The notes below the pieces were generated by a model. The model saw only the letters and a list, made by a program, of their open reading frames with translations, was not told the DNA's origin and searched no databases. Positions 7,117-53,248 of a DNA stretch of 59,352 bases are shown in pieces. A program made the translations under genes and the position numbers. Every line of letters begins with the position of its first letter. Positions within the stretch are counted from its first letter, which is position 1. Source of the stretch: a virus (lineage: Duplodnaviria > Caudoviricetes); the IMG/VR virus record IMGVR_UViG_3300043415_000084, positions 1-59,352 of that record; one strand, 5' to 3'.

Positions 7117-7117
7117 T

Positions 7118-20229: not shown

Positions 20230-20258
20230 TTGTGCTCCGGGGAGAGATGTATTATAAT
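20230..20258 (+). promoter_or_regulatory. sigma70-type promoter of the primase operon
   Basis: TTGTGC-17bp-TATAAT, then ATAGAGGA RBS at 20295. Confidence 0.6.
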
Positions 20259-20311
20259 TATACCAGCCCACCGAGGTGGTGTCAATAGTAATAGATAGAG
20301 GAACGTAAAGA

Positions 20312-26687: not shown

Positions 26688-26963
26688 ATGAAACAGTACG
26701 ACAACACCAATTCCGGGCTGCTGATGCGGAACGAGAATCGCACCACGGACTCGCACCCCGAGTTCACCGGATCGCTCAACGTCGAGGGCCGGGACTTCTG
26801 GGTATCCGCCTGGGTCAATACCGGCAAGCCCGGGTCCAAGATCGAGGGAAAGCGTTACTTCTCGATTAAGCTCTCCCCGAAGGATGCGCCCAATCGCGGG
26901 AACACGGGTCGCAAGAACGCGGCGACGGATTTCGACGATATAGACGACGAAATCCCATTTTGA
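26688..26963 (+). CDS. Small ssDNA-binding-like protein with SSB-type tail
   Basis: HPEFTGS..V.G..FWVSAW core; C-terminal DDIDDEIPF mimics the bacterial SSB tail. Confidence 0.65.
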   Translation: MKQYDNTNSGLLMRNENRTTDSHPEFTGSLNVEGRDFWVSAWVNTGKPGSKIEGKRYFSIKLSPKDAPNRGNTGRKNAATDFDDIDDEIPF

Positions 26964-28801
26964 TGAATATCCCACGCATTGACGGCCAGATCCCCTACTT
27001 GGTGGTAGATACCGAGACCACCGGGCTCAAGTGGTGGGAGGACCATGTGTTTGGGGTCTCTATCGCACTTCCCGATGGCACCGCTGGGTATTGGGACGTA
27101 CGGGCGACTCCGAAGATCCTGGATTGGATGGTCGACCTGATCGCCGAGGATCGCGTGGGCGTCTGGGTCGGGCATAATTTCAAGTTCGACCTGCACTTCC
27201 TGCGCGAAGCCCGAGTCGGAATCCCAACCGATCGGATCGATTGCACGATGATTCGGGCGGCGCTAATTAACGAGCATGAGCCGACTTATGGACTCGATTT
27301 TTTGGCACGGAAGTACGTCGGGGCGCAGAAAGACACGGAGATCTACGATGAACTGGCGAAGCTGTTTGGGGGTCGTGCTACACGCAACGCGCAGATGCCG
27401 AACATTTCACGCGCTCCTCAGGAGGTCGTGGCGCGGTATGCAATCCAGGATGCGGTAGTCACCCGGCAGCTATACCTGTGGCAGCGGAGCGAGATCGAGA
27501 AGCAGAATCTTCATCGAGTGCACAGGCTCGAGCGGGATCTGATGCCCGTTATTATCGACATGGAGACCGAGGGAGTGCGGGTCGACGTCGATATGGCCGA
27601 GAGGGCCTCTCGTCACCTCACGAAGCGCATCAACGATATGCAGCGGGATCTTAATAGGGAGGCCGGGTTCGAGATCAACCCGAACCCTTCCGGATCGATC
27701 GCGCAGCTATTCAAGCCGACCCTGGGTGAGGACAATGAGTGGTACCTGATCGATGGCACCCGGGCCGGGAAGACCGACGGCGGCAAGGCGTCGATCGATG
27801 CCGATTGTCTACGTCGCATGAAGCATCCGGCGGCGAAGATGATTCTCGATCTCCGCAAAATGCTCAAGACCCGAGACACTTTCATTCAGGGTCATATCCT
27901 CGGGCACCAGCAGGACGGGGTGATTCACTGCAATTATAACCAGACCAAGAACGATTCGGAAGCGGGGACCGGCACCGGGCGACTCTCGATCACCAATCCT
28001 GCGCTACAGCAAATCCCGTCGCGGGACGTGGCGATCAAATCGCTCGTGCGTCCGATCTTCAAGGCGGATCACGGCGCGAAATGGCTAGGTCTCGATTGGT
28101 CGCAATTCGAATTTCGGGTTGCGAACCATTATGGGCAGGTACCGTCCATTCTGGAGGCCTACCGCGAGAATCCGAATCTGGATTTTCACCAATTGGTCTC
28201 CGACATGACCGGCATCCCGAGGAACGCGCAGTACGCGGGGGGACCCTCCTCGAAAGCCATTAATCTTGGACTCGCCTTCAATATGGGGTCCGGGCGACTG
28301 GCCCAAGAGTGCGGACTACCCTACACCGAGGAGACCGGGCCGAATGGGAATCTGTACCTGAAGGCGGGACCCGAAGCGATGGAACTCTTCGAGCGGTACC
28401 ATGCGGCGAACCCCGGGATGCGGAATATGGCGAACAAGGCGAGTTCGATCGCCAAAGAGCGCGGGTACGTGCACTCGATCATGGGGCGGCATATTCGGTT
28501 CCCGGGTGGGCAGTTCGTGCACAAGGCGTCGGGGCTGATTTACCAAGCGACTTCCGCCGACTGCATGAAAATGAAGCTCATCGAGCTGCACCGTTATCTC
28601 ACCGGTCACGGGGTGGGGCGATTGCTGCTGTCCGTGCACGACGAGGTCGGGATCTCGCTCGATAAGGACTCGCTGGATCACGCGGACAAGATCGCGCAGA
28701 TTTACACTACATTTGATGGAATCGATTGCCCGATCAAGCTCCGGGTACCGATTACCTGTGATTGGGGCTTGGGTGAAGACTGGTACGAGGCAAAAGGATG
28801 A
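26960..28801 (+). CDS. dpoZ: Family A DNA polymerase, DpoZ-type (3'-5' exonuclease + polymerase)
   Basis: DTETTG, GHNFKFD, TGRLS..NP.LQQIP, DWSQFEFR, KAINLGLAFNMG, VHDE; ATGA-coupled to purZ. Confidence 0.8.
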   Translation: MMNIPRIDGQIPYLVVDTETTGLKWWEDHVFGVSIALPDGTAGYWDVRATPKILDWMVDLIAEDRVGVWVGHNFKFDLHFLREARVGIPTDRIDCTMIRAALINEHEPTYGLDFLARKYVGAQKDTEIYDELAKLFGGRATRNAQMPNISRAPQEVVARYAIQDAVVTRQLYLWQRSEIEKQNLHRVHRLERDLMPVIIDMETEGVRVDVDMAERASRHLTKRINDMQRDLNREAGFEINPNPSGSIAQLFKPTLGEDNEWYLIDGTRAGKTDGGKASIDADCLRRMKHPAAKMILDLRKMLKTRDTFIQGHILGHQQDGVIHCNYNQTKNDSEAGTGTGRLSITNPALQQIPSRDVAIKSLVRPIFKADHGAKWLGLDWSQFEFRVANHYGQVPSILEAYRENPNLDFHQLVSDMTGIPRNAQYAGGPSSKAINLGLAFNMGSGRLAQECGLPYTEETGPNGNLYLKAGPEAMELFERYHAANPGMRNMANKASSIAKERGYVHSIMGRHIRFPGGQFVHKASGLIYQATSADCMKMKLIELHRYLTGHGVGRLLLSVHDEVGISLDKDSLDHADKIAQIYTTFDGIDCPIKLRVPITCDWGLGEDWYEAKG

Positions 28802-29913
28802 AGAAAATAGATTTGGTCATTGACCTTCAATTCGGCAGCACGGGCAAGGGGCTGATCGTCGGCACTCTGGCGACCTACGAGGGATACGACACGGTGATCA
28901 CCGCGTGGGCACCCAACGCGGGGCATACGTTCATTGACGCCAAAGGGCGTAAATTCGTGCATACACATTTGGCGAATGGAATCGTCGCCCCCTACCTGCG
29001 TAGGGTGTTACTGGGCCCAGGCTCGGTGATTAATCCGGCGCAGCTCCTGGCCGAGATCGAACAGTGCAGGGATATAATCGACGCGAAAAATATCCAGATC
29101 CTTATCCATCCGCATGCAGCGGTGGTGACTGAGGAGCACTTGGAGGAAGAGGCGCAAAGCATGACGGCGATCGGCTCGACCAAGAAGGGTGTGGGTGCGG
29201 CGATGATTTCTCGGATCCGTCGTCAGCCGAACAAACCCGCCGTCGCGAAGGACTTCCTGGAGCTTGCGTCTATGGTGTGCACCACCGCGCAGTACCAACG
29301 GGCGATCCGAGATTCGGAGCACATTCTGATCGAAGGTGCGCAGGGCGTGGGCCTTTCCATGTACCACGGCTTCTACCCCTACACCACCTCGCGGGATGTG
29401 AGCACCTTCCAAATCCTGGCCGACTGTGGGATCCCGGCCACACTCTTCAACGAGGCCTCCTGTCGAGTGATTGGTACAGCGCGTACATATCCGATCCGGG
29501 TGGCGAACCGGTACGATTCGGAGGGCAGGCAGGTGGGGTACAGCGGACCGGCGCATCTGGATCAAAAGGAAATCTCATTCGAGGAGATCGGCCAGCCGAT
29601 CGAACTCACCACGGTGACCAAGCTCCCGAGGCGCATTTTCACGTTCAGCCGTGACCAGATCCACGAGGCGATCGACCTGTCGGGCGCGAGCGAGGTGTTC
29701 TTGAACTTCGCGAATTACGTGCAGGACGAGCAATACCTGCTCCATATCGTGAACTCTATTGAAGAGACCGGCGCTAGGGTAAAATGGCTGGGTCTCGGTC
29801 CCGATATCCACTCGGTGGTGCTGCTGTCCGAGGGTGAGAACTACACGGCGAGACGTAAAGAGATCGTATCCAAATGGCAGCGCTACAAATTCCGCAACAA
29901 GGCTGGAGCTTAA
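28798..29913 (+). CDS. purZ: PurZ, N6-succino-2-amino-deoxyadenylate synthase (PurA paralogue)
   Basis: DLQFGSTGKG (Ser in place of the PurA GDEGKG Asp), PNAGHT, EGAQG, YPYTTSR, YPIRV, TTVTKLPRR, NFAN. Confidence 0.93.
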   Translation: MKKIDLVIDLQFGSTGKGLIVGTLATYEGYDTVITAWAPNAGHTFIDAKGRKFVHTHLANGIVAPYLRRVLLGPGSVINPAQLLAEIEQCRDIIDAKNIQILIHPHAAVVTEEHLEEEAQSMTAIGSTKKGVGAAMISRIRRQPNKPAVAKDFLELASMVCTTAQYQRAIRDSEHILIEGAQGVGLSMYHGFYPYTTSRDVSTFQILADCGIPATLFNEASCRVIGTARTYPIRVANRYDSEGRQVGYSGPAHLDQKEISFEEIGQPIELTTVTKLPRRIFTFSRDQIHEAIDLSGASEVFLNFANYVQDEQYLLHIVNSIEETGARVKWLGLGPDIHSVVLLSEGENYTARRKEIVSKWQRYKFRNKAGA

Positions 29914-30640: not shown

Positions 30641-31189
30641 ATGGGTCTTTCTTTAGCCGAACAGCTCCGCGCTTCGCACGTCAAGCGGTGGCAGATCGTC
30701 AACGTCTCGCGCACCCAGAATCTAGCGGAGCATCATTTTAACGTTACCCTCATCGTCGGCCAACTGGCCCGACACTGCAGGGACAAGCAGTTGCTCGACC
30801 CTCAATACGCGTTGAGGCTGATGCACTGGTCGCTCTCGCACGACATGGTCGAGGTCCGCACCGGGGACACCCCGACGCCCTACAAGCGGGTGTTGAGACA
30901 GGTGGGAGGGCAGGACATTATCGACCAGTCCGAAGAGGTCGTGGACCCAGGGTACATTGCCGATAAGCGTCGGGTAGCTGGAACACCGATCGAAATGTAC
31001 GTGGAGATCGCGGACTTGATCGAGGCGATTTGGTTCCTGCATGACCACGGGATCGGGCAGAACGCACTCGATGTTCAATCGGGTCTTGAGGCGTCACTCG
31101 ACCGCTGTGTGCAGAAGTGGCACGGGACTTTCGAGGAATTGGATATTGACTTCGCGGTGCGCCGCGTGTGCGAGGAGATCGGGATATGA
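30641..31189 (+). CDS. datZ: DatZ-like HD-domain dATP phosphohydrolase
   Basis: HVKRW.IV....QNLAEH.F.V and HD..EVRTGDTPTP.K, ADLIEA motifs; in the purZ cluster. Confidence 0.85.
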   Translation: MGLSLAEQLRASHVKRWQIVNVSRTQNLAEHHFNVTLIVGQLARHCRDKQLLDPQYALRLMHWSLSHDMVEVRTGDTPTPYKRVLRQVGGQDIIDQSEEVVDPGYIADKRRVAGTPIEMYVEIADLIEAIWFLHDHGIGQNALDVQSGLEASLDRCVQKWHGTFEELDIDFAVRRVCEEIGI

Positions 31190-31386
31190 AATGTGTAAAG
31201 TGTGGCGGTAACACCCAGGTGACCACCGTGTACCAGAATGCGGACGGTGGAACGCGTCGTCGGAGGGAGTGCACGGTTTGCCATTTTCGATTCACCACGC
31301 GCGAGTACCCGTCGATCACGGATCCGAAGCTCAAAGAGTATTACTTGGAGACAGACGTTGACACAGATACCCCGCCCGTGGTATAA
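31186..31386 (+). CDS. NrdR-like zinc-ribbon protein (no ATP cone)
   Basis: MKCVKCG...TQV...RRRRECTVCHFRFTTRE. Confidence 0.75.
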   Translation: MKCVKCGGNTQVTTVYQNADGGTRRRRECTVCHFRFTTREYPSITDPKLKEYYLETDVDTDTPPVV

Positions 31387-31387
31387 T
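31358..31387 (+). promoter_or_regulatory. sigma70 promoter of the deacetylase operon
   Basis: TTGACA-18bp-(TGg)TATAAT; ATAGAGGA RBS at 31404. Confidence 0.75.
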
Positions 31388-31416
31388 TGAGATCTTAACA
31401 CATATAGAGGAACTTA

Positions 31417-32250
31417 ATGACCCCGATCTTTTACAATCTCCGTCAGTCCTGTGACTTCGACTTCCCGTCCTACCGCAAGATCCCGATGTTCGTGCGACAG
31501 GCCGCGCGACCGCTGCTCACCGATTTCGAACCGTTGAAGGACGTCGAACTCGTCACCGCACATTCGCTTAAATACGTAGCGAATGTATTCTCGGGCAAGA
31601 CCCCTAACGGATTCGGGAACACCGATCCGGCGCTCAATGAGACGTTGCGCTACACCAACGCGAGCTTCCTGGCCGCGACCCGACACGTAAGCGGAAAGAA
31701 GACGGAGGTCGCATGCTCAGCGACCCAGGGGTTCCATCACGCGGGGTTCGACTCCGGGGGTGGGTACTGCACGTTCAATGGTTTGATGATCGCGGCGTTA
31801 AGCTCCGGGGCCATAAAACCCGCCCTAATCTTCGACGGCGACGGTCACTATGGGGACGGAACAGATGATATAATCGGTGCGCTCGCCGTGCACGACCGGG
31901 TGCGGCATGTTACGAACATGGATATGGAATCGTTCGTTTCGCGTTATAAACCAAACGCTCATGAGTGGGAGGTGTGGGCCTCCGGCTTGATTTCGTCGTC
32001 GAAGCCTAGTATAATAATGTACCAAGCCGGTGCTGACGCATGGATCGAGGACCCTTACGGTGCGGGGTACCTGTCGCTCGAGGGTATGCGAAATCGAGAC
32101 CTCGGAATCTTTCGCGCAGCCAAGAAGTCCAAGATCCCCCTCGTGTGGAATCTCGCCGGTGGATACTGCAAGGATGTTCAGCGCACGGTAGACGTGCATA
32201 TTCAGACACTTAGAGCCAGCGACGAGGTGTATTATGGCGGGACCCGGTAA
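31417..32250 (+). CDS. Zn-dependent histone-deacetylase-family (HDAC/AcuC/APAH) amidohydrolase
   Basis: GFHHAG, GGYCTFN, DGDGHYGDGT, YQAGADAW..DP.G, LAGGY: complete catalytic and metal-ligand set. Confidence 0.9.
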   Translation: MTPIFYNLRQSCDFDFPSYRKIPMFVRQAARPLLTDFEPLKDVELVTAHSLKYVANVFSGKTPNGFGNTDPALNETLRYTNASFLAATRHVSGKKTEVACSATQGFHHAGFDSGGGYCTFNGLMIAALSSGAIKPALIFDGDGHYGDGTDDIIGALAVHDRVRHVTNMDMESFVSRYKPNAHEWEVWASGLISSSKPSIIMYQAGADAWIEDPYGAGYLSLEGMRNRDLGIFRAAKKSKIPLVWNLAGGYCKDVQRTVDVHIQTLRASDEVYYGGTR

Positions 32251-33421
32251 AGCACTCACATTTTTGGACCTGATGGGCCAAGTCGGAGCGGGAACCCGCG
32301 CGATCGCAAACCTCCCGGGGGCGAAGCGCATTCCGGAGTCGTTCGCCAAAGCGCAAAGAGGGATGACTCCAGCCGAGGTTATCGAGCAATACAATAAGGC
32401 GCAGATGTTCGGGAAAGATCCGACCACGGGTGAGGTCAGGCAATTGCAGCAGACTCCGAGGCTTCCGGACCCCTTCAATTCGCTATCGGTCAGTGATCGG
32501 GCGCGGATGGTGCAGGGGAAACTCCCACTCGAGCGCGGGGTAAAACAGAGGGTTATAAACCCTTCGAGTCCTTACACGACGTTGTCGGAATTCAGCTTGT
32601 ATCCGGATCAAGATTTGGTCTTCAGCAGCGCGACTCCCGAGGAGCTTTATCACCGGATGTACAATCGTGCCGAGGATGCACAAGCCAGAAGGCCTGTGCC
32701 GGACGAAGTCGGTGTGTACAATATTGGTGCGCTTGATGCGGGTGAAGGGTTGGGCGCTATGCAATACGCGGCGCTTTATGACCAGCTCCGTGCCGCAGGT
32801 GCTTTTTCGGGTCCTAATGCGCTCACCGACATTAATGAGTTACGTAGACTCGGTAATGTAATGTCCTACGGTTTGCGACATGGTGACTACGAGAACGTTG
32901 CACCGGTTATAAGCATGATGAATCGGTCCTCGCAGCTTTTCAATCGTGCGGAGAATGCGGATTGGATGGCTCGTCCGATGATGGAGGTCCTGCAGCAGGG
33001 ACGGGGTGACCCACTTTTCGAGCAAGCAGTAGCGCTTCGGCCTCAGCACATGACGCAAATGACCCCGGACCAAATCACCGGCACGCTGGGTTTTAAGGAA
33101 TCACAACTCGCTCGAATCGCCGGACCGGTACGCGAACCCGTGATGCTTGAGCCTGGGGATCCAGGACTGCTTCGTCACCTCGCGATTCCGGCGCTCACCG
33201 ATCCCAATGCTTTCGGGATGCAAAGGGGCATTGGCCCCAACACTTTGGGTCGTGCAGCGACGGTGGAACAGTTGATCGAGAAGATCCTCGCGGGTCGTAC
33301 CGGCGAGGAAGCGGCGGAGGAGATTCTTAATCAGTCCAAGCGTCGCGGGATGAACCTGGAGGAAGGGTACAAAGGTCGTTATAAACAAGGAGGGTTAGCA
33401 CGTGCAGCAATCATCGACTGA
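32234..33421 (+). CDS. Unknown protein with possible GNAT-like motif and C-terminal YKQGG tag
   Basis: Overlaps the deacetylase (GAGGTG RBS); VYNIGALDAGEGLGAMQYAALYDQLRAAG segment; ends RYKQGGLARAAIID. Confidence 0.55.
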   Translation: MAGPGKALTFLDLMGQVGAGTRAIANLPGAKRIPESFAKAQRGMTPAEVIEQYNKAQMFGKDPTTGEVRQLQQTPRLPDPFNSLSVSDRARMVQGKLPLERGVKQRVINPSSPYTTLSEFSLYPDQDLVFSSATPEELYHRMYNRAEDAQARRPVPDEVGVYNIGALDAGEGLGAMQYAALYDQLRAAGAFSGPNALTDINELRRLGNVMSYGLRHGDYENVAPVISMMNRSSQLFNRAENADWMARPMMEVLQQGRGDPLFEQAVALRPQHMTQMTPDQITGTLGFKESQLARIAGPVREPVMLEPGDPGLLRHLAIPALTDPNAFGMQRGIGPNTLGRAATVEQLIEKILAGRTGEEAAEEILNQSKRRGMNLEEGYKGRYKQGGLARAAIID

Positions 33422-33674
33422 TTTGAAGGCAATACTTGAACAACGCGGGTCGGAATACGGGGATTTCACGGAACAAGCGAAGATCTCCCAGGCCTTGCAG
33501 GAAGTAGCGAAGGCGGGGCGCAGTTACGTCACGATGGACACGTTCCAGAAGGAGGCGCTTTTTATGATTTTACACAAAATCTCGAGGATCGTTAATGGAA
33601 ACTCTCGGAACGTTGACTCATGGGCGGATATCGCCGGATATGCCACACTCGTTGCAGACCGACTACAAAAGTGA
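33402..33674 (+). CDS. DUF6378-like small protein
   Basis: L.QRG..YG.F...MILHKISRI.NG....DSWADIAGYATLV signature. Confidence 0.7.
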   Translation: MQQSSTDLKAILEQRGSEYGDFTEQAKISQALQEVAKAGRSYVTMDTFQKEALFMILHKISRIVNGNSRNVDSWADIAGYATLVADRLQK

Positions 33675-33681
33675 AGGGGTA

Positions 33682-33710
33682 TTGACAGATTGTAGCACCC
33701 GTGTTATAAT
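33682..33710 (+). promoter_or_regulatory. Consensus sigma70 promoter
   Basis: TTGACA-17bp-TATAAT with TG extension; ATAGAGGA at 33733. Confidence 0.85.
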
Positions 33711-36459: not shown

Positions 36460-37434
36460 ATGGCACACGAACTCGATTTTTCAAATGGTCGCGCGAACAT
36501 GGCCTACGCCGGTCGCACCCCCTGGCACGGACTCGGGCGGGAGCTGGACGCGAATGCGACGCTCGACACCTGGATCGAGCAAGCGGGGTTTAACTGGGAA
36601 GTCAAGAAGGGCGCGATCCAGTACGAGGTGCGCGACGAGGAGAATCACCCAGTCTGCGTGAACACGGTCCCTAACCGCTGGGCGCTTTACCGCTCGGACA
36701 CCGGCAAACCGCTTTCGGTCATGTCCTCGAATTACAACATCACCCAGCCGCGCGACGTTATGGAGTTCTTCCGGAACCTGATCGAAATCGGCGGGTTCAA
36801 GATGGAGACCGCCGGGATGCTGCGCGGTGGTGCCACCTATTGGGCGCTGGCTCGGATCGACGATTCGTTCGATGTCGGTGGCGGCGACACGATCCGCCCC
36901 TACGTCCAGGTCGCGACCTCGTGCGATGGAACACTAGCGAACGTTGCGCAGTTCACCTCGGTGCGGACCGTATGCCAGAACACGCTGAATGATGCGCTCC
37001 GCGAGTCCCAGGGCCAAGTCCGTATTCCGCATTCGACGAAGTTCAACGCCGAACGCGTCAAGGCTGACCTCGGGCTGATCGGCGGGACCTGGGAACGGTT
37101 CAAGAAGGACGCGACCGAGCTTTCGAAGCGGACGGTGTCGAAGGAGGAAGCGACCAAGTATTTCCTCGACGTGCTCTACCCGGACCAGGAAGAGGTCGAC
37201 CTCGACGCCCATCGTCCGATGCTCGAACTCGTGACTTCGATCTACCTGAACGGCATTGGCCAGAGCACCAAGACCGCGCAGGGTACCGCCTGGGGGCTGG
37301 TCAACGCGATCACCCGGTTCACGGACCATGAGCGTAAAGCCACCAGCGCAGATACCCGGCTGCAGTCCGCTTGGTTTGGTGCGGGTGCCCGGATGAAAAA
37401 GAACGCATTGACAACGGCACTCGCTCTGTTATAA
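36460..37434 (+). CDS. DUF932 / LGT_TIGR03299-family phage protein
   Basis: MAHE....MAYAG.TPWHGLG, METAG.L.GG..WALA, TS.DG...TSVR.VC.NTL, GTAWGL.NA.T...DH, SAWFG.G. Confidence 0.88.
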   Translation: MAHELDFSNGRANMAYAGRTPWHGLGRELDANATLDTWIEQAGFNWEVKKGAIQYEVRDEENHPVCVNTVPNRWALYRSDTGKPLSVMSSNYNITQPRDVMEFFRNLIEIGGFKMETAGMLRGGATYWALARIDDSFDVGGGDTIRPYVQVATSCDGTLANVAQFTSVRTVCQNTLNDALRESQGQVRIPHSTKFNAERVKADLGLIGGTWERFKKDATELSKRTVSKEEATKYFLDVLYPDQEEVDLDAHRPMLELVTSIYLNGIGQSTKTAQGTAWGLVNAITRFTDHERKATSADTRLQSAWFGAGARMKKNALTTALALL

Positions 37435-41734: not shown

Positions 41735-42430
41735 ATGGCTGGAGTAAAAATCGAACCTTTGCCGGTGGTGGATGTCGACGCGGTGGGTGAACAAACACTG
41801 CGCGAGTACGAGCGCCGCGCGGGGATCACGTACGCGATGCTTTACGACATGGTGAAGCAGGACCGTGTTCGTTTTAAGGAACGAGGGGTCGAAGAAGACG
41901 CCGAGTCGTTAGTTTACTGTGTCCCGGGTGTTGAGGGTGTCGGACGTCTATGGCGTTTTGAACGCACGAAAGCCTACCGCATGCTGCAAATCCTGGCTGA
42001 GTTTCGGGACGGACCCGAGAATGCAAAATTTTCTTTAAGACACGCGTACGTGGCTGCCGAAGTTAGCCGTGGTGCGATGTCCACGTGGAGGGCGGAACAT
42101 CCGACCTTCGATCGTCTGATGGAAGACATCCAGCTCGAAATGGTTGACACCATGAAAGCCGAGGCTTATCGGCGCTCGGTGATCGGAGTCGACGAGCCCT
42201 TGGTACACCAGGGTCTTAAGACGGGCGAAACGATCAAAAAGTATTCCGATTCCCTGCTGCAGTTTACCCTGATGGGGTACGACGCGAAATTCCGAGCCAA
42301 AGACGTGAACGTCGCGGTATCGGGCCAACTTAACACGAACGTTAACATCGAGGGACTCCGTGATCGACTTGCCCAGCGATTACAGGCGGTCGCCAAGTCG
42401 AAGATACAAGGCGAAGAAAGCCCCGATTGA
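41735..42430 (+). CDS. Terminase small subunit
   Basis: WR..HP.F...EAYRR...GV.EP...G....KKYSDSLL.F.L; immediately upstream of TerL. Confidence 0.8.
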   Translation: MAGVKIEPLPVVDVDAVGEQTLREYERRAGITYAMLYDMVKQDRVRFKERGVEEDAESLVYCVPGVEGVGRLWRFERTKAYRMLQILAEFRDGPENAKFSLRHAYVAAEVSRGAMSTWRAEHPTFDRLMEDIQLEMVDTMKAEAYRRSVIGVDEPLVHQGLKTGETIKKYSDSLLQFTLMGYDAKFRAKDVNVAVSGQLNTNVNIEGLRDRLAQRLQAVAKSKIQGEESPD

Positions 42431-43802
42431 TCCGCACAATTTCTCGGATTTTGTGTCCGAGATGAGCGATCAGGAGGTGGTGGAGCTTTACTACGACTGG
42501 CCGACCTGGGCTCGACCCAACCAGATGGTCCCACCCGGTGAGGATTGGACGATTTGGCTCATTCTTGCCGGTCGTGGGTGGGGGAAGACTCGGTGTGGTG
42601 GTGAATTCGTGCGGTTTCACGTGGAACGAAAGCTTGCTTCACGCGTTGCGCTGATCGCCGAAGACGCGGGGGACGCCCGGGACGTGATGATCGAGGGCGA
42701 ATCCGGGCTCCTGGCCATTTCGCACCCCTCAAACCGTCCGAATTGGGTGCCGTCCAAGCGCCGACTCGAGTGGCCCAACGGGGCGATCGCGACGATCTAC
42801 TCGGACAACGATCCCGAGACCCTGCGCGGTCCACAGCACGACCTGTTTTGGGTCGACGAGTTGGCGAAATTCCGCAACGCCAAAGAAATGTGGTCTAATT
42901 TGATGTTCGGGCTTCGCCTCGGCCAACGCCCACGCGGTGTCGTCACCACCACGCCCAAACCGATTCCCATCGTGCGGGAGCTGCTCGAAAACCCGCGCGT
43001 CTTCGTCACCTCAGGGACCACGCATGAGAATTTCGGAAACCTTGCACCTACATTCCGTGATGAAATCATCGCCCAGTACGAGGGCACTCGACTTGGACGG
43101 CAAGAGCTTTACGCCGAGGTCATCGACCCGGAAGATTACGGAATCGTCAAACGCGAGTGGTTCAAGCTTTGGGACTCCGATCGGCCATTCCCCGATTTTA
43201 TGTACATTGTGCAGTCCTACGATTGTGCTTACACCGAAAAGACTATCAACGACCCAACCGCATGTTCCGTCTGGGGAGTGTTCAGGCCGAGTGAGGATTC
43301 ACCTCTTTGCGTGATGCTGATCGACTGCTGGGAGGAATTTCTCGCCTACCCCGATTTACGCCCCCGGGTGATCAACGAGTACAAAGAGTCCGTGTACGGC
43401 GAACCGGGCAAAAAGACCGATTTGGTGCTCGTCGAGGAGAAAGCCTCGGGCATTTCGATCCTCCAGGACTTGCGCTACGCCGGGGTGCCGTGTCGTGGCT
43501 ACAATCCGGGGCGAGCCGACAAGGTCCAACGGCTGCACATCGTGGCAAACATCATCGCCTGCGGTCGCGTCTACATTCCCGAGTCGGTCGTGCACCGAGG
43601 CCAGCCGCGTGACTGGGCGGAAAAGCTCGTGTCCCAGATCTGCTCCTTCCCCGAGGCCGAGCGCGACGACCTGACCGACACGACCACGCAGGTGCTGCGG
43701 CTGCTCAAGGACATGGACTTTTTGCGCATCGACCCGGCCGAAGTCGCGCCGGATTACTACGACGACGAACGACCACGCAGGGTGAATCCTTATGCCCAAT
43801 GA
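42360..43802 (+). CDS. terL: Terminase large subunit
   Basis: AGRGWGKT Walker A, LRGPQ..WVDE Walker B, TTTPKP, FP.A.RDD..D nuclease; true start may be ~42453/42462. Confidence 0.93.
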   Translation: MIDLPSDYRRSPSRRYKAKKAPIDPHNFSDFVSEMSDQEVVELYYDWPTWARPNQMVPPGEDWTIWLILAGRGWGKTRCGGEFVRFHVERKLASRVALIAEDAGDARDVMIEGESGLLAISHPSNRPNWVPSKRRLEWPNGAIATIYSDNDPETLRGPQHDLFWVDELAKFRNAKEMWSNLMFGLRLGQRPRGVVTTTPKPIPIVRELLENPRVFVTSGTTHENFGNLAPTFRDEIIAQYEGTRLGRQELYAEVIDPEDYGIVKREWFKLWDSDRPFPDFMYIVQSYDCAYTEKTINDPTACSVWGVFRPSEDSPLCVMLIDCWEEFLAYPDLRPRVINEYKESVYGEPGKKTDLVLVEEKASGISILQDLRYAGVPCRGYNPGRADKVQRLHIVANIIACGRVYIPESVVHRGQPRDWAEKLVSQICSFPEAERDDLTDTTTQVLRLLKDMDFLRIDPAEVAPDYYDDERPRRVNPYAQ

Positions 43803-45027
43803 TCTACTGAAAACGATCGGCGATTACCTCAACCCCGAGGATGTGCTCACCCTGGCCGGACCGCTCGCGGGGTTCAAGCCCACAGCCGGGATCACCGCCG
43901 CGCTGTACGCACCGAGCTTGAACGAAAACGAGGCCGAGGAGTTGGACAAGCTCCGGGCGATGCGCCCCCCAGTCGCTGCTCCACGTGAAACCGTACAGAC
44001 TCCCGAAATGCGGGATTTTGTAAATCGACTCCGGTACGAGCAGTTCGTGGGCGATCTCCGCAAGCAGTACGGGCAGCACGCCGACCTGATGCTGCAGGGG
44101 TTAATCAAGCAAGGGCTGCAGGACGAAGCGCAACAGGCCCGGATGACCGGTCCACGTGCCAAGCCCCCCGCCCCTCCCGCCGCGCGGCACGAGGCGACCA
44201 TCCCCGAAGGGCGATTCCGCAGGTACGCCGAGGGCGGCATGATCGAGCACACCACGCCGGACATGTCCGACGGCGGGCGGATGTTTTACACGGATTCGCT
44301 CGACTCCTACGCCGGGGGTGGTGGCGTTAAGGGAAAGACCGTGCAGCAAATGGCGGACGAGTTGCTCACCAAAGGTGTGAAGACGCCGGACCTGTCGAGG
44401 CGAGGGTTCATGCGGTTGCCGGATCTAGGTGGTCTCAAGGAGTCGAAGCTCCCGGTACCGGCCAAAGACATGGAGCGCTTCCAGACCGAGAAGACCATGG
44501 TCGATCCCCTCTCGGGTTCGGTGGAGAAAGTGGTCGAGAAGGTCGCGCAAACGCCGATGTCCAGGCGTCAGGTTTTGCAGGGCGCACTTGCCCAAACCGC
44601 GCAACGGGTGCTGCCCTCGGTGGCTATGCAACCCGTGAGGGATGTGGCGTCCGAGGTGGCCAAGACTGTGATGAAGCCCGTCCCCACCCCGTCAATTGGT
44701 GGTCTGGTGGCGCAGGCGTTGAAAATGGGTATGGACGAAGACGAGGTCATTCGTTTCGTGCAAAGTGCGATGCCAAAAGAAGATCCTGAGGCGATAGCCG
44801 GTGATTTGTATTACCTGCCCGGAATTATGCGCGATCCGTACGAATACGCAGAGGATATGGGCGATGCACCATTGATGAAAATCTTCGGGCAATTAGTGTC
44901 GCCCTACCAGGAATCCCCAATGGGACTTCGTCGTACGATGCGCGACATACGAGCCATAGACCCGGAAAAGTACAATGAGTTAAAATCGGTGGCTCGCGAT
45001 ATTAAAATGTCGAATCTGGAAGACTAA
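43792..45027 (+). CDS. Unknown protein between terL and portal with YAxGG and twin-arginine-like motifs
   Basis: YAEGG, MSDGG, YAGGG; DLSRRGFM and PMSRRQVL. Confidence 0.6.
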   Translation: MPNDLLKTIGDYLNPEDVLTLAGPLAGFKPTAGITAALYAPSLNENEAEELDKLRAMRPPVAAPRETVQTPEMRDFVNRLRYEQFVGDLRKQYGQHADLMLQGLIKQGLQDEAQQARMTGPRAKPPAPPAARHEATIPEGRFRRYAEGGMIEHTTPDMSDGGRMFYTDSLDSYAGGGGVKGKTVQQMADELLTKGVKTPDLSRRGFMRLPDLGGLKESKLPVPAKDMERFQTEKTMVDPLSGSVEKVVEKVAQTPMSRRQVLQGALAQTAQRVLPSVAMQPVRDVASEVAKTVMKPVPTPSIGGLVAQALKMGMDEDEVIRFVQSAMPKEDPEAIAGDLYYLPGIMRDPYEYAEDMGDAPLMKIFGQLVSPYQESPMGLRRTMRDIRAIDPEKYNELKSVARDIKMSNLED

Positions 45028-45036
45028 GGACCCGAT

Positions 45037-47544
45037 ATGGCCACTAGCACTTTTCCGCAGCAGCAACAGCCATCGATGACCCCCGGGCCGGAGGATACCG
45101 AAGGTCTGATGGTCGACCTGGACGACGAGTTCGCGGAGATCGAAGAGCAGCCCGACGGCTCGGCGATCGTCCGAATGCGTGAATTCGCGGGTCCACAAGA
45201 GGATCCGGACTTCTACGAGAATCTGGCCGAGACCGTTCCCTCCTGGGAGTTGTCAAAGCTCGCGCTGAAGATGATCCAGCTGATCAAAGCGGACAAAGAA
45301 GCGCGGAAGGAACGCGACGAGCAATACGAAGAGGGGATCCGACGCACGGGATTGGGGAAAGACGCCCCGGGTGGTGCGAATTTCGAGGGTGCATCTAAAG
45401 TCGTGCACCCGGTGATGGCCGAGGCCTGCGTCGATTTCGAATCCAGGGCGATCAAAGAGCTTTTCCCGCCGGACGGTCCCGTACGGACGAATGTGGTGGG
45501 GGATGTCACCGACGAGCAAAAGAATCGGGCCGAGCGCAAGCGCGATTTCATGAACTGGCAGCTGACGAACCAGATCGTCGAATTCCGGGACGAACAGGAG
45601 CAAATGCTGACCCAGCTCCCGCTTGGGGGTTCGCAGTTCCTGAAGCTGTGGTACGATCCGCAGAAAAAGCGCCCCTGCGCCGAATTCGTTCCGATCGACA
45701 ATCTAATCATCCCTTACGCGGCGGGGAGTTTCTACACCGCGAACCGTTGCGCCGAGATGCAGGACATCACCGAGCAGATGTTCAACGAGCGGATCGAGGC
45801 GGGGCTTTATCGTGACATTTCGGTCACCAGGGTTGCCGAGGAGCCCGAGCTTACCGAGCCCGAGAAGGCGAACCAGAAGGTCGAGGGCAAGACCTGGACC
45901 GATGACGAGGACGGGCTGCGGCGTGTGTACCACGTGATGGTGAACATGTCCTGCGAGTGGGACACGTTGTGCGACGGCGAAATCGCCCCTTACATTTTGA
46001 TGATCGACGAGCAGACCTCCGATGTGGTCGGCTGGTACCGAAATTGGGAAGAAGGGGACGAGACGCGCACGAAGCTCGACTGGATCATCGAGTTCAAATT
46101 CATCCCCTGGCGTGGAGCACTGGCGATCGGGTTTCCGCATTTGATCGGCGGCATGTCGGCTGCGCTCACCGGGGCACTCCGGGCGCTGCTGGACACGGCG
46201 CACATCAATAACGCGGCGACGATGCTCAAGCTCAAAGGGACGAAGATTTCGGGCCAAAGTCAGAACGTCGATGTTACCCAGATCACCGAGATCGAGGGTG
46301 CACCGGGGGTGGATGACATTCGCAAGATCGCGATGCCGATGCCTTTCAATCCGCCGTCCGAAGTGCTATTCAAGCTGATGGGGTGGCTGACCGAAGCCGC
46401 GAAAGGCGTGGTGACCACGAGCGAAGAGAAAATCGCCGATATCGCCTCCACTGCTCCGGTCGGTACGACTCAGGCGCTGATCGAACAGGGCGCGGCGGTA
46501 TTTAGCGCGATTCACGCCCGGTTGCACGAGTCGCAAAAGCGGGTGCTGATGGTGCTGCAGCGCATCAACCGCTGGTACCTCGACGAAATGATCATGCACG
46601 ACGTCCCGGCGGAACTCGAGGTTAAGCGCGAGGACTTCAACCGGAACTCGGACGTGATCCCAGTGTCGGATCCGCATATCTTCTCCGAAACGCAGCGGAT
46701 GGCACAGAATCAAGCCGTGCTGGCGCTGATGGACAAGAACCCGGACCTTTTCGACCGCCGTGCGGTTGTACACCGGGTGCTAAAGCAGATGAAGGTGCCG
46801 AACATCACCGAAATCATGCCCGCTGTGGCCGAACCGATGGAGATCAACGCGGCGGAGGAAAATGGTGCGATGTCGATCGGTCGCGCAGCATTCGCCTACC
46901 CACACCAAAACCACCTCGCGCATATTCAGGCGCACCTTGATTTCGCGATGAACCCGATGCTGGGCGCGAACCCGATGATCGCCCCGACTTTCATGCCAAT
47001 GCTGGTCGAGCACATCAAGCAGCACGTGATCCTTTGGTACCTGGGCCACATGAACGGTTATGTCGAAAAGGCGCTCGGCAAGAAGCCCGAGGACTACGAC
47101 GTCGCCGGAATCACCGGAGAGGTGGACAAGCTGTACGCACTCGCCTCGCAACACGTGATGATGGACTCGAAAGACGCTTTCGCGAAGGTCATGCCGGTGA
47201 TCCAGCAGATCCAGCAGGTGCTAATGCAGCTCAAGCCCAAGCCCCCAATGGACGGCGGCGACCAAGTGATCCTCGAGACCTCAATGGCCGAAACGCAACG
47301 CCGTGCCGAGAACGACAAGGCGCGACTGGCGCTCGACGCCGAGAAGATCAAGCTCGAGGCGCTGGCCAAGAATCGCCAACAGCAAATCGACATCGCGCTC
47401 AACGCCAGCGATAACCTGACCGAAGAGCGAATCAAGACCGCAGAACTTACGCACGACGCGCAAAGGCTGCAATCCGAGCAGCTCGAAACTGCAATTACCG
47501 CGCAAGACAGCGCACAACGTGCACTAGGAGGCATGAATGGCTAA
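45037..47544 (+). CDS. Portal protein
   Basis: F.GAS.V.HPV.AEA.V.F..RA..ELFP..GPV, LPL.GS.F.K, PVGTT.AL.E, DV.PVSDP; size and position. Confidence 0.85.
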   Translation: MATSTFPQQQQPSMTPGPEDTEGLMVDLDDEFAEIEEQPDGSAIVRMREFAGPQEDPDFYENLAETVPSWELSKLALKMIQLIKADKEARKERDEQYEEGIRRTGLGKDAPGGANFEGASKVVHPVMAEACVDFESRAIKELFPPDGPVRTNVVGDVTDEQKNRAERKRDFMNWQLTNQIVEFRDEQEQMLTQLPLGGSQFLKLWYDPQKKRPCAEFVPIDNLIIPYAAGSFYTANRCAEMQDITEQMFNERIEAGLYRDISVTRVAEEPELTEPEKANQKVEGKTWTDDEDGLRRVYHVMVNMSCEWDTLCDGEIAPYILMIDEQTSDVVGWYRNWEEGDETRTKLDWIIEFKFIPWRGALAIGFPHLIGGMSAALTGALRALLDTAHINNAATMLKLKGTKISGQSQNVDVTQITEIEGAPGVDDIRKIAMPMPFNPPSEVLFKLMGWLTEAAKGVVTTSEEKIADIASTAPVGTTQALIEQGAAVFSAIHARLHESQKRVLMVLQRINRWYLDEMIMHDVPAELEVKREDFNRNSDVIPVSDPHIFSETQRMAQNQAVLALMDKNPDLFDRRAVVHRVLKQMKVPNITEIMPAVAEPMEINAAEENGAMSIGRAAFAYPHQNHLAHIQAHLDFAMNPMLGANPMIAPTFMPMLVEHIKQHVILWYLGHMNGYVEKALGKKPEDYDVAGITGEVDKLYALASQHVMMDSKDAFAKVMPVIQQIQQVLMQLKPKPPMDGGDQVILETSMAETQRRAENDKARLALDAEKIKLEALAKNRQQQIDIALNASDNLTEERIKTAELTHDAQRLQSEQLETAITAQDSAQRALGGMNG

Positions 47545-47705: not shown

Positions 47706-47891
47706 ATGCGTTACGTCTCGGACTTCGTCGAGGCTCTGAAGTACGAGCAGCAACGTTTGCGCGATGCAATGGCCGCAGGATCCCCTGCGACCTTTGAGGC
47801 CTACCAACGCCTAGTTGGCCAAAATCAAGGGCTTGAAAAAGCTCTGGATATCTTAAACAATCTTTTAATGGAAGAGGATTCCGATGACTGA
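47706..47891 (+). CDS. Small head-module protein
   Basis: G....FE.YQRLVGQ..GL..A pattern; between portal and GroES-like gene. Confidence 0.7.
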   Translation: MRYVSDFVEALKYEQQRLRDAMAAGSPATFEAYQRLVGQNQGLEKALDILNNLLMEEDSDD

Positions 47892-48315
47892 TAAACCGGA
47901 GGCTTCGAATGAAGCCGCTTTGCGGGAAGCATTTCCTGCTGTCGACCCCGGTGCTGTACCCGTAGGTGGCCGTATTTTGGTTCAGTGGCGTCAAACCCGC
48001 AAAACCGCGACCGCTGCAGGTCTACTAATCGTGGAAGAGACGAAAGAAACGGAAAAGTGGAACAATCAAGTCGCGAAGGTGATAGCGATTGGACCGCTGG
48101 CATTCAAGAAGCGAGACACGCTTGAACCCTGGCCGGAAGGCAACTGGGTGGAGGTGGGCGATTACGTCCGCATGCCGAAGTGGGGCGGCGACAGGTGGGA
48201 GGTCGTGTTTGGCGATCCAAAGCTGGGCGAAACCGCGCTGTTCTCGATCTTTAATGACCACGAAGTGATCTCTAAAGTAACGGGTGATCCGTTGAAAGTG
48301 AAGGCCTTCCTATGA
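47884..48315 (+). CDS. GroES-like co-chaperonin
   Basis: PVGGRILV, T.AGLLI, V.AIGP, VGDYV, ND.EVI. Confidence 0.8.
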   Translation: MTDKPEASNEAALREAFPAVDPGAVPVGGRILVQWRQTRKTATAAGLLIVEETKETEKWNNQVAKVIAIGPLAFKKRDTLEPWPEGNWVEVGDYVRMPKWGGDRWEVVFGDPKLGETALFSIFNDHEVISKVTGDPLKVKAFL

Positions 48316-50492: not shown

Positions 50493-51407
50493 ATGGCAGC
50501 CCCGATGCGCAGTACCGACTTTCGGTCGATAGTCGAGCCTATCCTTAACGAATGCTTCGACGGTATTTACGAGCAACGCAAGGACGAGTGGTCGAGAGTC
50601 TTCCGCGAGGAGCAAGGCATTCCTCGTAATTACCACGAAGAGCCAGTCCTGTACGGATTTGGCGCAGCACCTCAACTGCCTGATGGTACTCCAGTGACCT
50701 ATCAGCAGGGCGGTGTGCTCTTCCTCAAGCGCTACGTGTACAACGTTTATGGCTTGGCCTTCGCGTTGACCAAAGTGCTCGTGGAAGACGGCGACCACAT
50801 CCGGATCGGTCAAGTTTACGCCAAGCACCTCGCACAGTCACTCATTGAGACCAAAGAGACGCTGTCGGCAAACGTGCTCAACCGCGCCTTTAACAGCTCT
50901 TACCCCGGTGGCGACGGCGTCCAGTTGAACTCGGCTTCACACCCGATCGTCAATGGCACCTTCAGTAACCTTTTGTCTACAGCCGCGAACCTTTCGCAGA
51001 CCTCGCTTGAGCAAATGCTCATTCAGGTCCGTCAGGCAGTGGACAACAACGGCAAGAAGATCCGCCTTGTGCCCCGCCAGTTGGTGGTCGCACCCGGTAA
51101 CGTCTTCCAGGCCGAAGTGTTGCTCAAGTCCGTGCTCCGCGCAGGTACCGCGAACAACGACATCAACCCGGTCAAGTCAATTGGCTTGCTCGACGAAGGT
51201 GCCGCAGTTCTTTCGCGTCTGACCTCGGCGACGGCTTGGTGGGTGCAAACCGACGCTCCGGAAGGCATGAAGCTCTTGATGCGTCGTGCGCTTGAGAAGA
51301 CGATGGAAGGTGACTTCGAAACTGACTCGATGCGCTACAAGGCGACCGAGCGTTACGACGTCGGCTTTACCGATCCTCGGGCAATGTACGGCACTCCAGG
51401 AGTGTAA
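50493..51407 (+). CDS. Major capsid protein (HK97 fold, Mu gpT-like)
   Basis: EP.L..FG.A...DG..V.Y, ETKE...ANVLN.AF..GGDG..L.S.SHP, GDFET...RYKA.ERY..G..D.R..YG.PG. Confidence 0.88.
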   Translation: MAAPMRSTDFRSIVEPILNECFDGIYEQRKDEWSRVFREEQGIPRNYHEEPVLYGFGAAPQLPDGTPVTYQQGGVLFLKRYVYNVYGLAFALTKVLVEDGDHIRIGQVYAKHLAQSLIETKETLSANVLNRAFNSSYPGGDGVQLNSASHPIVNGTFSNLLSTAANLSQTSLEQMLIQVRQAVDNNGKKIRLVPRQLVVAPGNVFQAEVLLKSVLRAGTANNDINPVKSIGLLDEGAAVLSRLTSATAWWVQTDAPEGMKLLMRRALEKTMEGDFETDSMRYKATERYDVGFTDPRAMYGTPGV

Positions 51408-52450: not shown

Positions 52451-53248
52451 ATGGGTCAGTTTAAACCAATGGTCAAAATGATGACCACCGAACCTTCGGT
52501 CATACTGAAGCTTAAACAGGGAGGATCAGCCTCTCATAAGCGGCTCATGAAAGAGGGCGGCGAAATGGGTCACAAGCCCATGGGAAAAGCGATCGGTGGC
52601 GCGATGGGCGCTTTAGCGGGTTCACCCCCTCCGACCACCCCGATCGGTAACCCTGCTGCAGCAAGAGCGATGGCTACTCGCCGTATGGCGAAGGCTCCGA
52701 CTCCGGCGGCGGCATCGGTTCCTCGCGTTGGACCTGCTCCCGCCCCTGCAATGCCAATGGGTCGTCCGATGATGCGCAAGAAAGGCGGAGAAATCGAGAC
52801 CCCGGCGATGCATAAAGCTGAGATGAAAGCGATTCACAATGTGGACACTCGGTTGAAGAAGCATGCTGATAAACCTGCCTCGAAAGCGCACAAGGGATTG
52901 AGGACGGGTGGTGTTGCCAAGTCGACGAAACCGGGTGAATACGCGACCGGCGGCGTAGTGGACGGTCAAGGTGGATTCAAGAATGGTGGTATCATCAAGA
53001 CGATGACCAAGAAGACGACGAAGGTGGTAGAGGCAAAGCCCGACCGCAATTCGGCTCCGACTGGCGACGTTAAGATGGGGAATGCTGGTGGCTACAAGAA
53101 AGGTGGTGCCACAAAAAAGCATTTTGCTACGGGGGGCGTAGTTGATTCAGGCCGACCCGTAGCGATGCCGAAAAAGGCTCCTTCCAAACCCGTCGCGATT
53201 TCCCAGCTTTCCGGGACGTTCAAGAAGGGTGGTCAGGTAGCTTGTTAA
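52451..53248 (+). CDS. Basic low-complexity protein with ~10 [YFMLK]xxGG repeats
   Basis: LKQGG, MKEGG, KAIGG, RKKGG, LRTGG, YATGG, FKNGG, YKKGG, FATGG, FKKGG. Confidence 0.7.
   Translation: MGQFKPMVKMMTTEPSVILKLKQGGSASHKRLMKEGGEMGHKPMGKAIGGAMGALAGSPPPTTPIGNPAAARAMATRRMAKAPTPAAASVPRVGPAPAPAMPMGRPMMRKKGGEIETPAMHKAEMKAIHNVDTRLKKHADKPASKAHKGLRTGGVAKSTKPGEYATGGVVDGQGGFKNGGIIKTMTKKTTKVVEAKPDRNSAPTGDVKMGNAGGYKKGGATKKHFATGGVVDSGRPVAMPKKAPSKPVAISQLSGTFKKGGQVAC

Follow-up and report, generated by a model that had tools for sequence, protein, structure and literature searches.

Lysine acylation is widespread in bacteria and, to our knowledge, its use by phages is almost unexplored. Here, we describe an operon at positions 31358-33674 of an IMG/VR virus record of 59,352 nt (complete by CheckV, 100%; this whole stretch is referred to as the window), which comes from an uncultured phage lineage carrying genes of the Z (2-aminoadenine) DNA pathway. 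The operon encodes an HDAC-family deacylase, a protein of 395 aa with a predicted GNAT-like fold that we call p395, and a small DUF6378 protein.

A described counterpart of the deacylase is VcHdaH, a selective lysine de-decanoylase placed in cluster 5 together with human HDAC11. That study (PMC11532494) connects the motifs G-[FY]-HH and xGGY with a pocket extended to take long acyl chains, and quotes the HDAC11 versions as GGGFHH and SGGY. Like VcHdaH and HDAC11, the phage enzyme is a short single-domain protein with the HH, D-x-H, D and GGY set, and its motifs, QGFHH and AGGY, resemble those quoted for HDAC11. Unlike VcHdaH (318 aa), it has 277 aa, is phage-encoded and is translationally coupled to a GNAT-like gene. 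For p395, the comparison is with the polyvalent proteins, which are delivered by the virion and for which GNATs are listed as one class of protein-modifying effector (Iyer et al. 2017, PMC5512222). As far as the available text goes, solo GNATs also sit among the late genes of some mycobacteriophages, and the words "deacetylase" and "HDAC" have 0 occurrences in the main text. These GNATs, like p395, are phage-borne modules of acyltransferase fold, and they are thought to modify proteins after entry. However, the two GNAT families covered in that text are RimI-like and can be recognized from their sequences. No GNAT model matches p395, which also has an extra helical domain of ~140 aa and an RYxxGG tail, and which shares an early operon with a deacylase instead of lying among late genes.

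Two other kinds of system invite comparison. The GNAT toxins AtaT, TacT and KacT resemble p395 at the level of the fold (Z 5.2-6.0 over ~100-120 residues), and there too a small GNAT core adjoins a potentially counteracting gene. However, where these toxins have an RHH antitoxin, p395 has a deacylase-class enzyme as its partner; it is also double their length, and no sequence similarity is detectable. A GNAT toxin-antitoxin system was accordingly rejected for this operon, in which the neighbors of p395 are the HDAC and DUF6378 genes and no RHH domain was found. The viral polyamine enzymes, in turn, include a viral GNAT and a viral HDAC-family amidohydrolase that act on one class of metabolite, but the phage spermidine N-acetyltransferases and the giant-virus acetylpolyamine amidohydrolases (APAHs) occur in separate virus groups and are never paired in the available text of PMC9992855. 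Moreover, p395 is unlike SpeG-type enzymes, and the phage HDAC is much nearer to VcHdaH than to APAH. A full-text literature search returned no HDAC/GNAT pair of the kind described here and no characterized phage HDAC, although the supplementary tables of PMC11532494, PMC5512222 and PMC9992855 may list phage homologues.

Our reading of the operon, to which we assign a probability of roughly 40%, is that it forms a write-and-erase module: a lysine deacylase and a GNAT-fold effector, made early from one operon, would act on the same mark, which the effector would set and the deacylase would limit or reverse.

Results

Sequence and Class of the Deacylase

The deacylase gene (31417..32250, plus strand) encodes a protein that matches PF00850 with E = 1.2e-22 (81.1 bits, against a cut-off of 27.9). 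An intact enzyme with all catalytic elements (HH, DxH, D and GGY) had been predicted from the sequence of this locus (the original prediction), and this is borne out by the orthologues. Residues H107-H108, D140/D142-x-H144, D207 and G248-G249-Y250 are invariant in 11 of them, down to 52% identity, and the catalytic set, composed of the tandem His, the Asp-His-Asp zinc ligands and the Tyr of GGY, aligns with that of VcHdaH. We consider it very probable that the phage protein is active as a Zn-dependent lysine deacylase.

A sequence search of the PDB listed 47 HDAC-family chains at E<=1e-3. The closest solved relative among these matches is VcHdaH (9gkv/9gky), with E = 3.7e-17 over residues 94-268 of the deacylase, and the next best are two further short bacterial enzymes. 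APAH chains were found at E = 5e-6 to 3e-4, covering only residues ~84-153, and class I HDACs at E = 1e-5 to 7e-7, which means that both groups score 10-12 orders of magnitude below VcHdaH with partial coverage of the protein. None of the 47 listed chains is named AcuC, the AcuC sequence itself not having been directly compared, and NCBIfam models gave no match at E<=0.1. Because VcHdaH is so much the nearest match and the motifs are of the G-[FY]-HH/xGGY type, with APAH and class I HDACs far weaker, the label "AcuC family" under which the enzyme had been predicted should be replaced by cluster 5/HDAC11-like. This putative placement is drawn from PDB sequence matches and motif resemblance; VcHdaH itself is assigned to cluster 5b. 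Judging from the same motifs, the phage deacylase likely prefers acyl groups longer than acetyl.

In a tblastn search of 50,697 GenBank phage records, the deacylase matched 6 records only; Rhodococcus phage E3 (gp202) and several huge phages carry a homologue. In one uncultured phage of 595 kb (LR756511.1; L120, 5848-6758), the homologue is split into two overlapping open reading frames (ORFs) when read in code 11, for which a frameshift, use of another genetic code or an error in sequencing could account.

Predicted Fold and Sequence Family of p395

The p395 gene (32234..33421, plus strand) had been given a tentative GNAT call, and modeling of the fold strengthens it. An AlphaFold2 model produced from 30 diverse sequences reached a predicted local distance difference test (pLDDT) score of 89.2 and a predicted template modeling (pTM) score of 0.90; a model produced from the first 7 close sequences (pLDDT 38.1) was discarded. 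In the retained model, a helical N-terminal segment precedes a GNAT-like α/β domain (residues ~46-235; 32369..32938, plus strand), the limits of which come from the structure comparisons described below, and a helical C-terminal domain (residues ~240-378, with helices at 243-378; 32951..33367, plus strand). It is the GNAT-like domain, and not the C-terminal helical domain, that dominates the fold searches.

When the model was compared by VIA-align with 48,161 PDB representatives, the best 50 rows were all members of the GNAT/NAT superfamily, with Z scores of 5.0-6.8. These rows align 95-146 residues over the ~46-235 region and cover most of each small target. The KAT domain of Elp3 (Z 6.8) and the acetyl-CoA-binding domains of ICL2 (6.8) and Rv1916 (6.7) are at the top, and further matches include GNA1, NatD, serotonin N-acetyltransferase, AtaT/TacT, Hat1, aminoglycoside acetyltransferases and AHL synthase. 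A second comparison, on the list returned by Foldseek, likewise gave a top 50 made up of GNAT-superfamily folds (Z 4.6-6.8). Foldseek itself found no row against the PDB at E<=1e-3, its weak rows being enriched in GNATs. Since the list is uniform and small GNAT targets are covered almost completely, a GNAT-like core is the best reading of residues ~46-235, and we hold it to be probable on the strength of the model.

In GNATs, the β4-α3 loop with α3, together with α4, holds the pyrophosphate and pantetheine of coenzyme A (CoA). The corresponding elements of the p395 model are β4 at residues 161-168, α3 at 174-188 and α4 at 199-216. G174 and Y178 open α3, and N201, R204, R205 and N208 line α4. 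Four of the nine invariant residues of the family (G174, Y178, N201 and R204) would thus map to what we take to be the CoA-binding elements of GNATs. The original prediction had pointed to the V161...R205 stretch (32714-32848) as a GNAT β4-α3 loop with a GxGxG signature. The location and the element are right, but only G174 of that signature is invariant among the 30 sequences.

The family to which p395 belongs is small. A word-based search recovered 8 proteins, and an exhaustive HMMER search of 1.84 billion sequences recovered 40 representatives. The family alignment (A2, n=30) contains p395 of the window, P0004, P0007, P0008 and 26 full-length or near-full-length representatives. It leaves out the fragments P0036 and P0038-P0043, as well as P0044-P0048, which are four distant hits and a 176-aa fragment (P0047). 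Per column, identity averages 33%. The nine invariant residues are G174, Y178, N201, R204, G283, R340, Y383, G386 and G387, and D183, R205, N208 and R382 are near-invariant. There is no match for p395 in PHROGs or NCBIfam, nor in the 50,697 GenBank phage records by blastn or tblastn. The ESM Atlas gave a best score of 0.77 and no structure, and pattern scans of 185,579 species genomes with alignment A1 found no p395 relative.

Linkage and Divergence of the Genes

Next, we looked at how the genes are arranged in related phages. A scan of IMG/VR with the p395 alignment yielded 50 loci. An HDAC orthologue lies 5′ of p395 in all 47 loci that reach far enough upstream, and a DUF6378 gene lies 3′ in 50/50; one gap (L031) holds a further p395 paralogue. 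The HDAC alignment served for a second scan, which matched 195 stretches; the 80 of these that were kept gave 66 loci with new identifiers, 58 of them within the lineage, and 27 of these on new contigs. The order HDAC, p395, DUF6378 is found in 58/58 of these in-lineage loci and, when both scans are combined, in 74/74 distinct contigs. The PurZ cluster is also present in every locus extending far enough upstream. Furthermore, 16 of the 17 orthologue pairs examined have an HDAC stop that overlaps the start of p395. All 74 linked contigs form one syntenic phage group, in which the polymerase is ~80% identical.

Against this constant order, p395 itself has changed fast. Between the two main clades, identity is 28-34% for p395, compared with 51-55% for the HDAC, 57-64% for PurZ and 79-86% for the polymerase (DpoZ), making p395 the least conserved of the tracked genes except for a 66-aa ORF. 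One contig (L071, the same contig as L031) carries two tandem p395 paralogues (6749-8071 and 8370-9644) that are only 34% identical to each other, both of which retain an RYxKGG tail. Rapid divergence, tandem duplication and modular fusion are typical of host-facing proteins. The divergence of p395 and its tandem paralogues are suggestive, at the level of sequence, of an arms race.

As an outgroup, we used eight phage HDAC loci whose deacylases are 37-40% identical to that of the window. In these loci the HDAC gene adjoins either tail sheath and tube genes or a DUF932 gene. Two ORFs 5′ of outgroup HDAC genes (392 and 348 aa) were considered as possible relatives of p395 and rejected, with an hhalign probability <1%. 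The window has a DUF932 gene of its own at 36460-37434, 3 kb 3′ of the operon, and DUF932 genes lie ~1.5 kb or less 5′ of the HDAC in two outgroup loci, L110 (3590-4585) and L114 (4690-5748). Proximity between HDAC and DUF932 genes thus recurs in the window and in two unrelated outgroup phage loci.

Relation of p395 to Polyvalent Proteins

The best BFVD match of p395 is a segment of a protein of >1,000 aa from an uncultured phage, named [quoted passage not shown] (E = 2.4e-3, probability 1.00, 418 columns). Profile comparison by hhalign aligns the p395 profile with residues 106-224 of a protein of 1037 aa, which has an SLT transglycosylase at its end (96%, E = 3e-9), and with residues 116-366 of a 663-aa multi-module protein (96.6%, E = 6e-10). 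The modules of these two relatives are separated by xxGG motifs, which are YAQGG, YAEGG, MADGG and MAEGG in the 663-aa protein, with FYAGGG, FKDGG and YQRGG completing the set for the pair. By these comparisons, p395 is a putative remote relative of phage polyvalent-protein domains.

The only Pfam family that touches p395 is LPD37 (PF18853), with E = 0.058 and 13.3 bits against a cut-off of 27. The core of the match runs from residues ~160-235 of p395 against positions ~60-150 of the profile, and recurs in two fused orthologues and two distant relatives. Across these proteins the scores are 13-14.4 bits against 27 (E = 0.027-0.072), and among the 30 members of the p395 family LPD37 appears at E<=0.1 in two (best 0.01). 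These scores being far below the Pfam gathering threshold, membership of p395 in LPD37 was rejected. A search for the genomic context of the distant relatives P0046 and P0044 found none in IMG/VR; among GenBank phages, P0046 was matched by its SLT domain only and P0044 had no match.

The C-Terminal Tag and Head-Module Fusions

The best-conserved part of p395, a protein that is otherwise ~30% identical between clades, is its last ~14 residues (GRY-x-x-GG-L/A-A...). In the window, this tag reads RYKQGG-LARAAIID (33377..33418, plus strand), with R382 near-invariant and Y383, G386 and G387 invariant. The protein had been described as ending in YKQGG, which needs correction: the motif occupies residues 383-387 and is followed by LARAAIID. 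The tag is disordered in the AlphaFold2 model (pLDDT <50 at 387-395). Of 43 orthologues, 39 are unfused and finish with RY..GG plus 6-9 residues; in the four fused forms the motif is internal.

A related motif is found in head-module and internal proteins of the same genome, as had been predicted. In its strict form ([YF][AK]xGG) it is present once in p395, twice in the product of 43792-45027, five times in that of 52451-53248 and once in that of 10560-15113. In a looser form ([YFWM]xxGG) it occurs 26 times in the whole proteome, against 15.5 +/- 4.0 in shuffled versions (maximum 29 in 500 shuffles), which is a modest enrichment. The first of these proteins, p411 (411 aa; 43792..45027, plus strand), is encoded between the large terminase and the portal. 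Its three xxGG motifs, at ~145-175, join an N-terminal domain to a C-terminal domain of ~230 aa, and this triplet is conserved in position in orthologues from a divergent clade that are only 27-34% identical. The 265-aa protein (52451..53248, plus strand), encoded in the head region after the major head gene, is rich in Lys, Ala, Pro and Gly. It has five strict and about ten loose xxGG motifs and ends in FKKGGQVAC. Neither Pfam nor PHROGs offered a match. A scaffold-like or internal role, relying on the peptide code of p395 and p411, is conceivable.

A direct connection between p395 and the head module comes from gene fusions. In four relatives (L004, L005, L013 and L015), p395 is fused to one or two copies of the ~230-aa p411 C-terminal domain, which are 35-53% identical to the C-terminal half of p411 in the window (35% for P0001, with E = 8e-29). 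The genomes with such a fusion also keep p411 in the head module, with extra copies in G006-G008. A search for longer fused forms found an 882-aa fusion of p395 with the p411 C-terminal domain as the only one, and no HDAC-p395 fusion. The domain is poorly annotated: Pfam gives a sub-threshold TAT_signal only, the Atlas nothing at >=0.9, and 60 homologues are all unnamed or "hypothetical protein". From sequence, RYxxGG/xxGG acts like a conserved peptide that joins head-associated modules or forms their tail. It may be a docking peptide, a protease site at GG or, given the Ala-rich C-terminus, a degron of the ClpX type. That p395 is packaged into virions, as the tag and fusions might suggest, we regard as doubtful.

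The p411 C-terminal domain itself contains two internal twin-arginine-like motifs (SRRGFMRL and SRRQVLQGALA). In one fused orthologue (L013, 10001-12649), TAT_signal is just below threshold, at 21.5 bits against 22.7. The domain is tandemly duplicated in some relatives.

Genome Setting of the Operon

The operon starts with a sigma-70 promoter, TTGACA-18-TATAAT with an extended -10 TG (31358..31387, plus strand), that matches the consensus at 12/12 positions. A ribosome-binding site, GAGGA (31407..31411, plus strand), can be read 5 nt 5′ of the HDAC ATG at 31417. The p395 gene, which has its own GAGGTG, overlaps the HDAC stop by 17 nt, and is in turn overlapped by 20 nt by the third gene of the operon (33402..33674, plus strand). 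This last gene encodes 90 aa that match DUF6378 (PF19905, E = 2.2e-9) as well as phrog_17775 and phrog_474, which carry nucleotide- or sugar-phosphate-type labels; no relative of solved structure was found for it. The next perfect promoter (33682..33710, plus strand) marks the downstream boundary, which means that the promoters at 31358 and 33682 bracket exactly three genes. The promoter, the ribosome-binding site and the order of overlapping genes are therefore as first described.

Nearly all genes of the genome are on the plus strand. Perfect TTGACA-N16-18-TATAAT sites occur six times, against 0.01 expected, and 0/100 shuffled sequences reach six. They are located at 20257-20285 (minus strand), 26632, 31358, 33682, 37408 and 39151, and are therefore confined to the early region at 20-40 kb (20.2-39.2 kb), with none in the structural module, offering a clean map of early transcription. 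The replication/early region includes the polymerase gene (26960-28801), PurZ (28798-29913; phrog_1211, E = 2.3e-84), a MazZ-like pyrophosphohydrolase and a DatZ-like HD protein (phrog_7076, E = 1.2e-26). Between DatZ and the operon, 31168-31386 encodes an NrdR-type zinc ribbon of 72 aa (PF22811, E = 1.5e-8), which may be a small regulator. The gene is kept in all relatives, and its 3′ end contains the HDAC promoter. The structural module opens with the small and large terminases (41735-43802) and continues with the portal (45037-47544) and the major head protein (50493-51407), with tail and fiber-like genes further on. It goes on at the beginning of the record, where an internal protein of 1517 aa (10560-15113) and a DNA-ejection protein are encoded. 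A Cpn10/GroES-like co-chaperonin gene (47884-48315; PF00166, E = 8.5e-7) lies in the head module, directly 3′ of the portal gene.

Discussion

The findings above can be arranged into a model. The operon at 31358-33674 would be transcribed early by host RNA polymerase in a lineage of virulent Z-genome podophages. Translationally coupled to the HDAC, p395 would be a highly diverged GNAT-fold protein that probably binds acyl-CoA and acylates an amine, most likely one carried by a protein. It may have descended from, or been the source of, effector domains in polyvalent proteins. During takeover it would acylate a target belonging to the host or the phage, a mark that the deacylase would limit, reverse or time, or from which it would shield phage proteins. 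The RYxxGG tag would serve for docking or processing, possibly loading some p395 into capsids. The parts of this model differ in strength. Whether p395 has real acyl-transfer activity, with the CoA binding, the transfer and the target that this would entail, we judge to be close to an even question, leaning slightly towards no. A functional link between HDAC and p395 is more tentative. In its most ambitious form, in which the lineage would run its own reversible protein acylation through a divergent GNAT writer bearing an RYxxGG code and partly loaded into capsids, together with a co-translated HDAC11-type eraser, we find the model unlikely.

Several observations speak against the write-and-erase reading. 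The Z scores of the fold matches are all below 8, a range in which, according to the warning of the tool, a match may mean a common arrangement only. At E<=0.1, Pfam finds no GNAT family in p395 or in any of the 30 family members, and PF00583 has no match in the window genome at the same threshold, at which 14/14 control genomes were positive. The p395 family profile has 0 matches among PDB sequences at E<=10. In motif A (Q/RxxGxG/A), G174 alone is invariant and the R/Q of the first position is not conserved; by an eye-count of alignment blocks, roughly half of the 30 family members have G172. Because all linked contigs belong to one syntenic lineage, the HDAC-p395 linkage counts as one evolutionary observation, and it could be inherited gene order. 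None of the eight outgroup HDAC loci has p395 within 6 kb, a p395 relative was found in 0/5 of the outgroup records that were searched throughout (these records being 15-70% complete), and 20 ORFs beside outgroup HDACs, including those of Rhodococcus phage E3 gp202 and of a huge-phage HDAC, include no GNAT by Pfam. The neighborhood comparison called for by the original prediction is therefore divided: the pair is linked in every relative examined, but these make up one lineage, outside which the HDAC is found without p395. As for capsid loading, the early-type host promoter and a site outside the structural module suit an intracellular role better than packaging.

A serious alternative, if not one we favor, is that the HDAC and p395 have separate functions and no more in common than their operon. 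Acting alone, the deacylase might remove host acyl-lysine marks from proteins of the host or the phage, or release polyamines from acetylpolyamines for replication and DNA packaging, and p395 would be an unrelated host-takeover or anti-defense protein. All eight outgroup loci, in their varied contexts, fit this explanation, as do the homologues in phage E3 and several huge phages, and the absence of a p395 relative from the five outgroup records. That viruses can use such enzymes on polyamines is biochemically proven for giant-virus APAHs, according to the available text of PMC9992855. However, the same text assigns all ten of its conservatively identified viral APAH homologues to Imitervirales and none to phages, and the E values given above place the phage enzyme much nearer to VcHdaH (3.7e-17) than to APAH (5e-6). 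Independence of the two genes is also harder to square with a conserved stop-start overlap and with an adjacency that is invariant even though p395 has diverged to ~30% identity.

We think it improbable that p395 is not an enzyme at all but belongs to a minor virion or ejection protein, with a degenerate GNAT-like fold that serves as a scaffold or for binding and an RYxxGG tag that directs assembly. Such a role would account for a degenerate GNAT motif that no GNAT sequence model matches, for homology to modules at the N-terminus of multi-domain proteins that bear an SLT lysin, for the fusion to a head-module domain in four relatives and for a tag common to head-region proteins. On the other hand, four of the nine invariant residues would fall on CoA-binding GNAT elements, 8 kb separate the structural module from the early sigma-70 operon that contains the gene, and structural proteins rarely outpace every neighboring gene and duplicate in tandem.

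Finally, a role in the Z DNA/nucleotide pathway, whether by transiently acylating an amino-purine intermediate or by regulating Z enzymes through acylation, is highly improbable: the operon does lie directly 3′ of PurZ, MazZ and DatZ in every contig reaching that far and the PHROG labels of DUF6378 are of nucleotide or sugar-phosphate type, but its promoter is separate from that of the Z operon at 26632, none of the six GenBank records with an HDAC match is known to be a described Z-genome phage, the outgroup HDAC loci are without PurZ (one of eight has a weak match, 28% identical and on the opposite strand, that may be PurA-like), and a full-text literature search for PurZ or 2-aminoadenine with deacetylase gave nothing relevant. 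Nothing was found that ties the module mechanistically to the pathway.

Phage HDAC-family genes and GNAT domains in polyvalent proteins are kinds already known. What is new here is a GNAT-like family invisible to sequence models, with a conserved RYxxGG tail and fusions to a head-module domain, which in a lineage of Z-genome phages is invariably coupled in translation to a cluster 5 deacylase.

Returning to the write-and-erase reading, the locus offers a compact and testable pair, an intact HDAC11-like deacylase and a rapidly diversifying new GNAT-fold family in one early operon. If both enzymes share one mark, the pair would be a phage-encoded write-and-erase switch, and it could yield new deacylase and acyltransferase specificities. 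The RYxxGG peptide and the head-module fusions provide a handle on how virion-associated modules are marked and joined. Even if the two enzymes are unrelated, a new protein family and a phage HDAC subgroup would be cleanly annotated.

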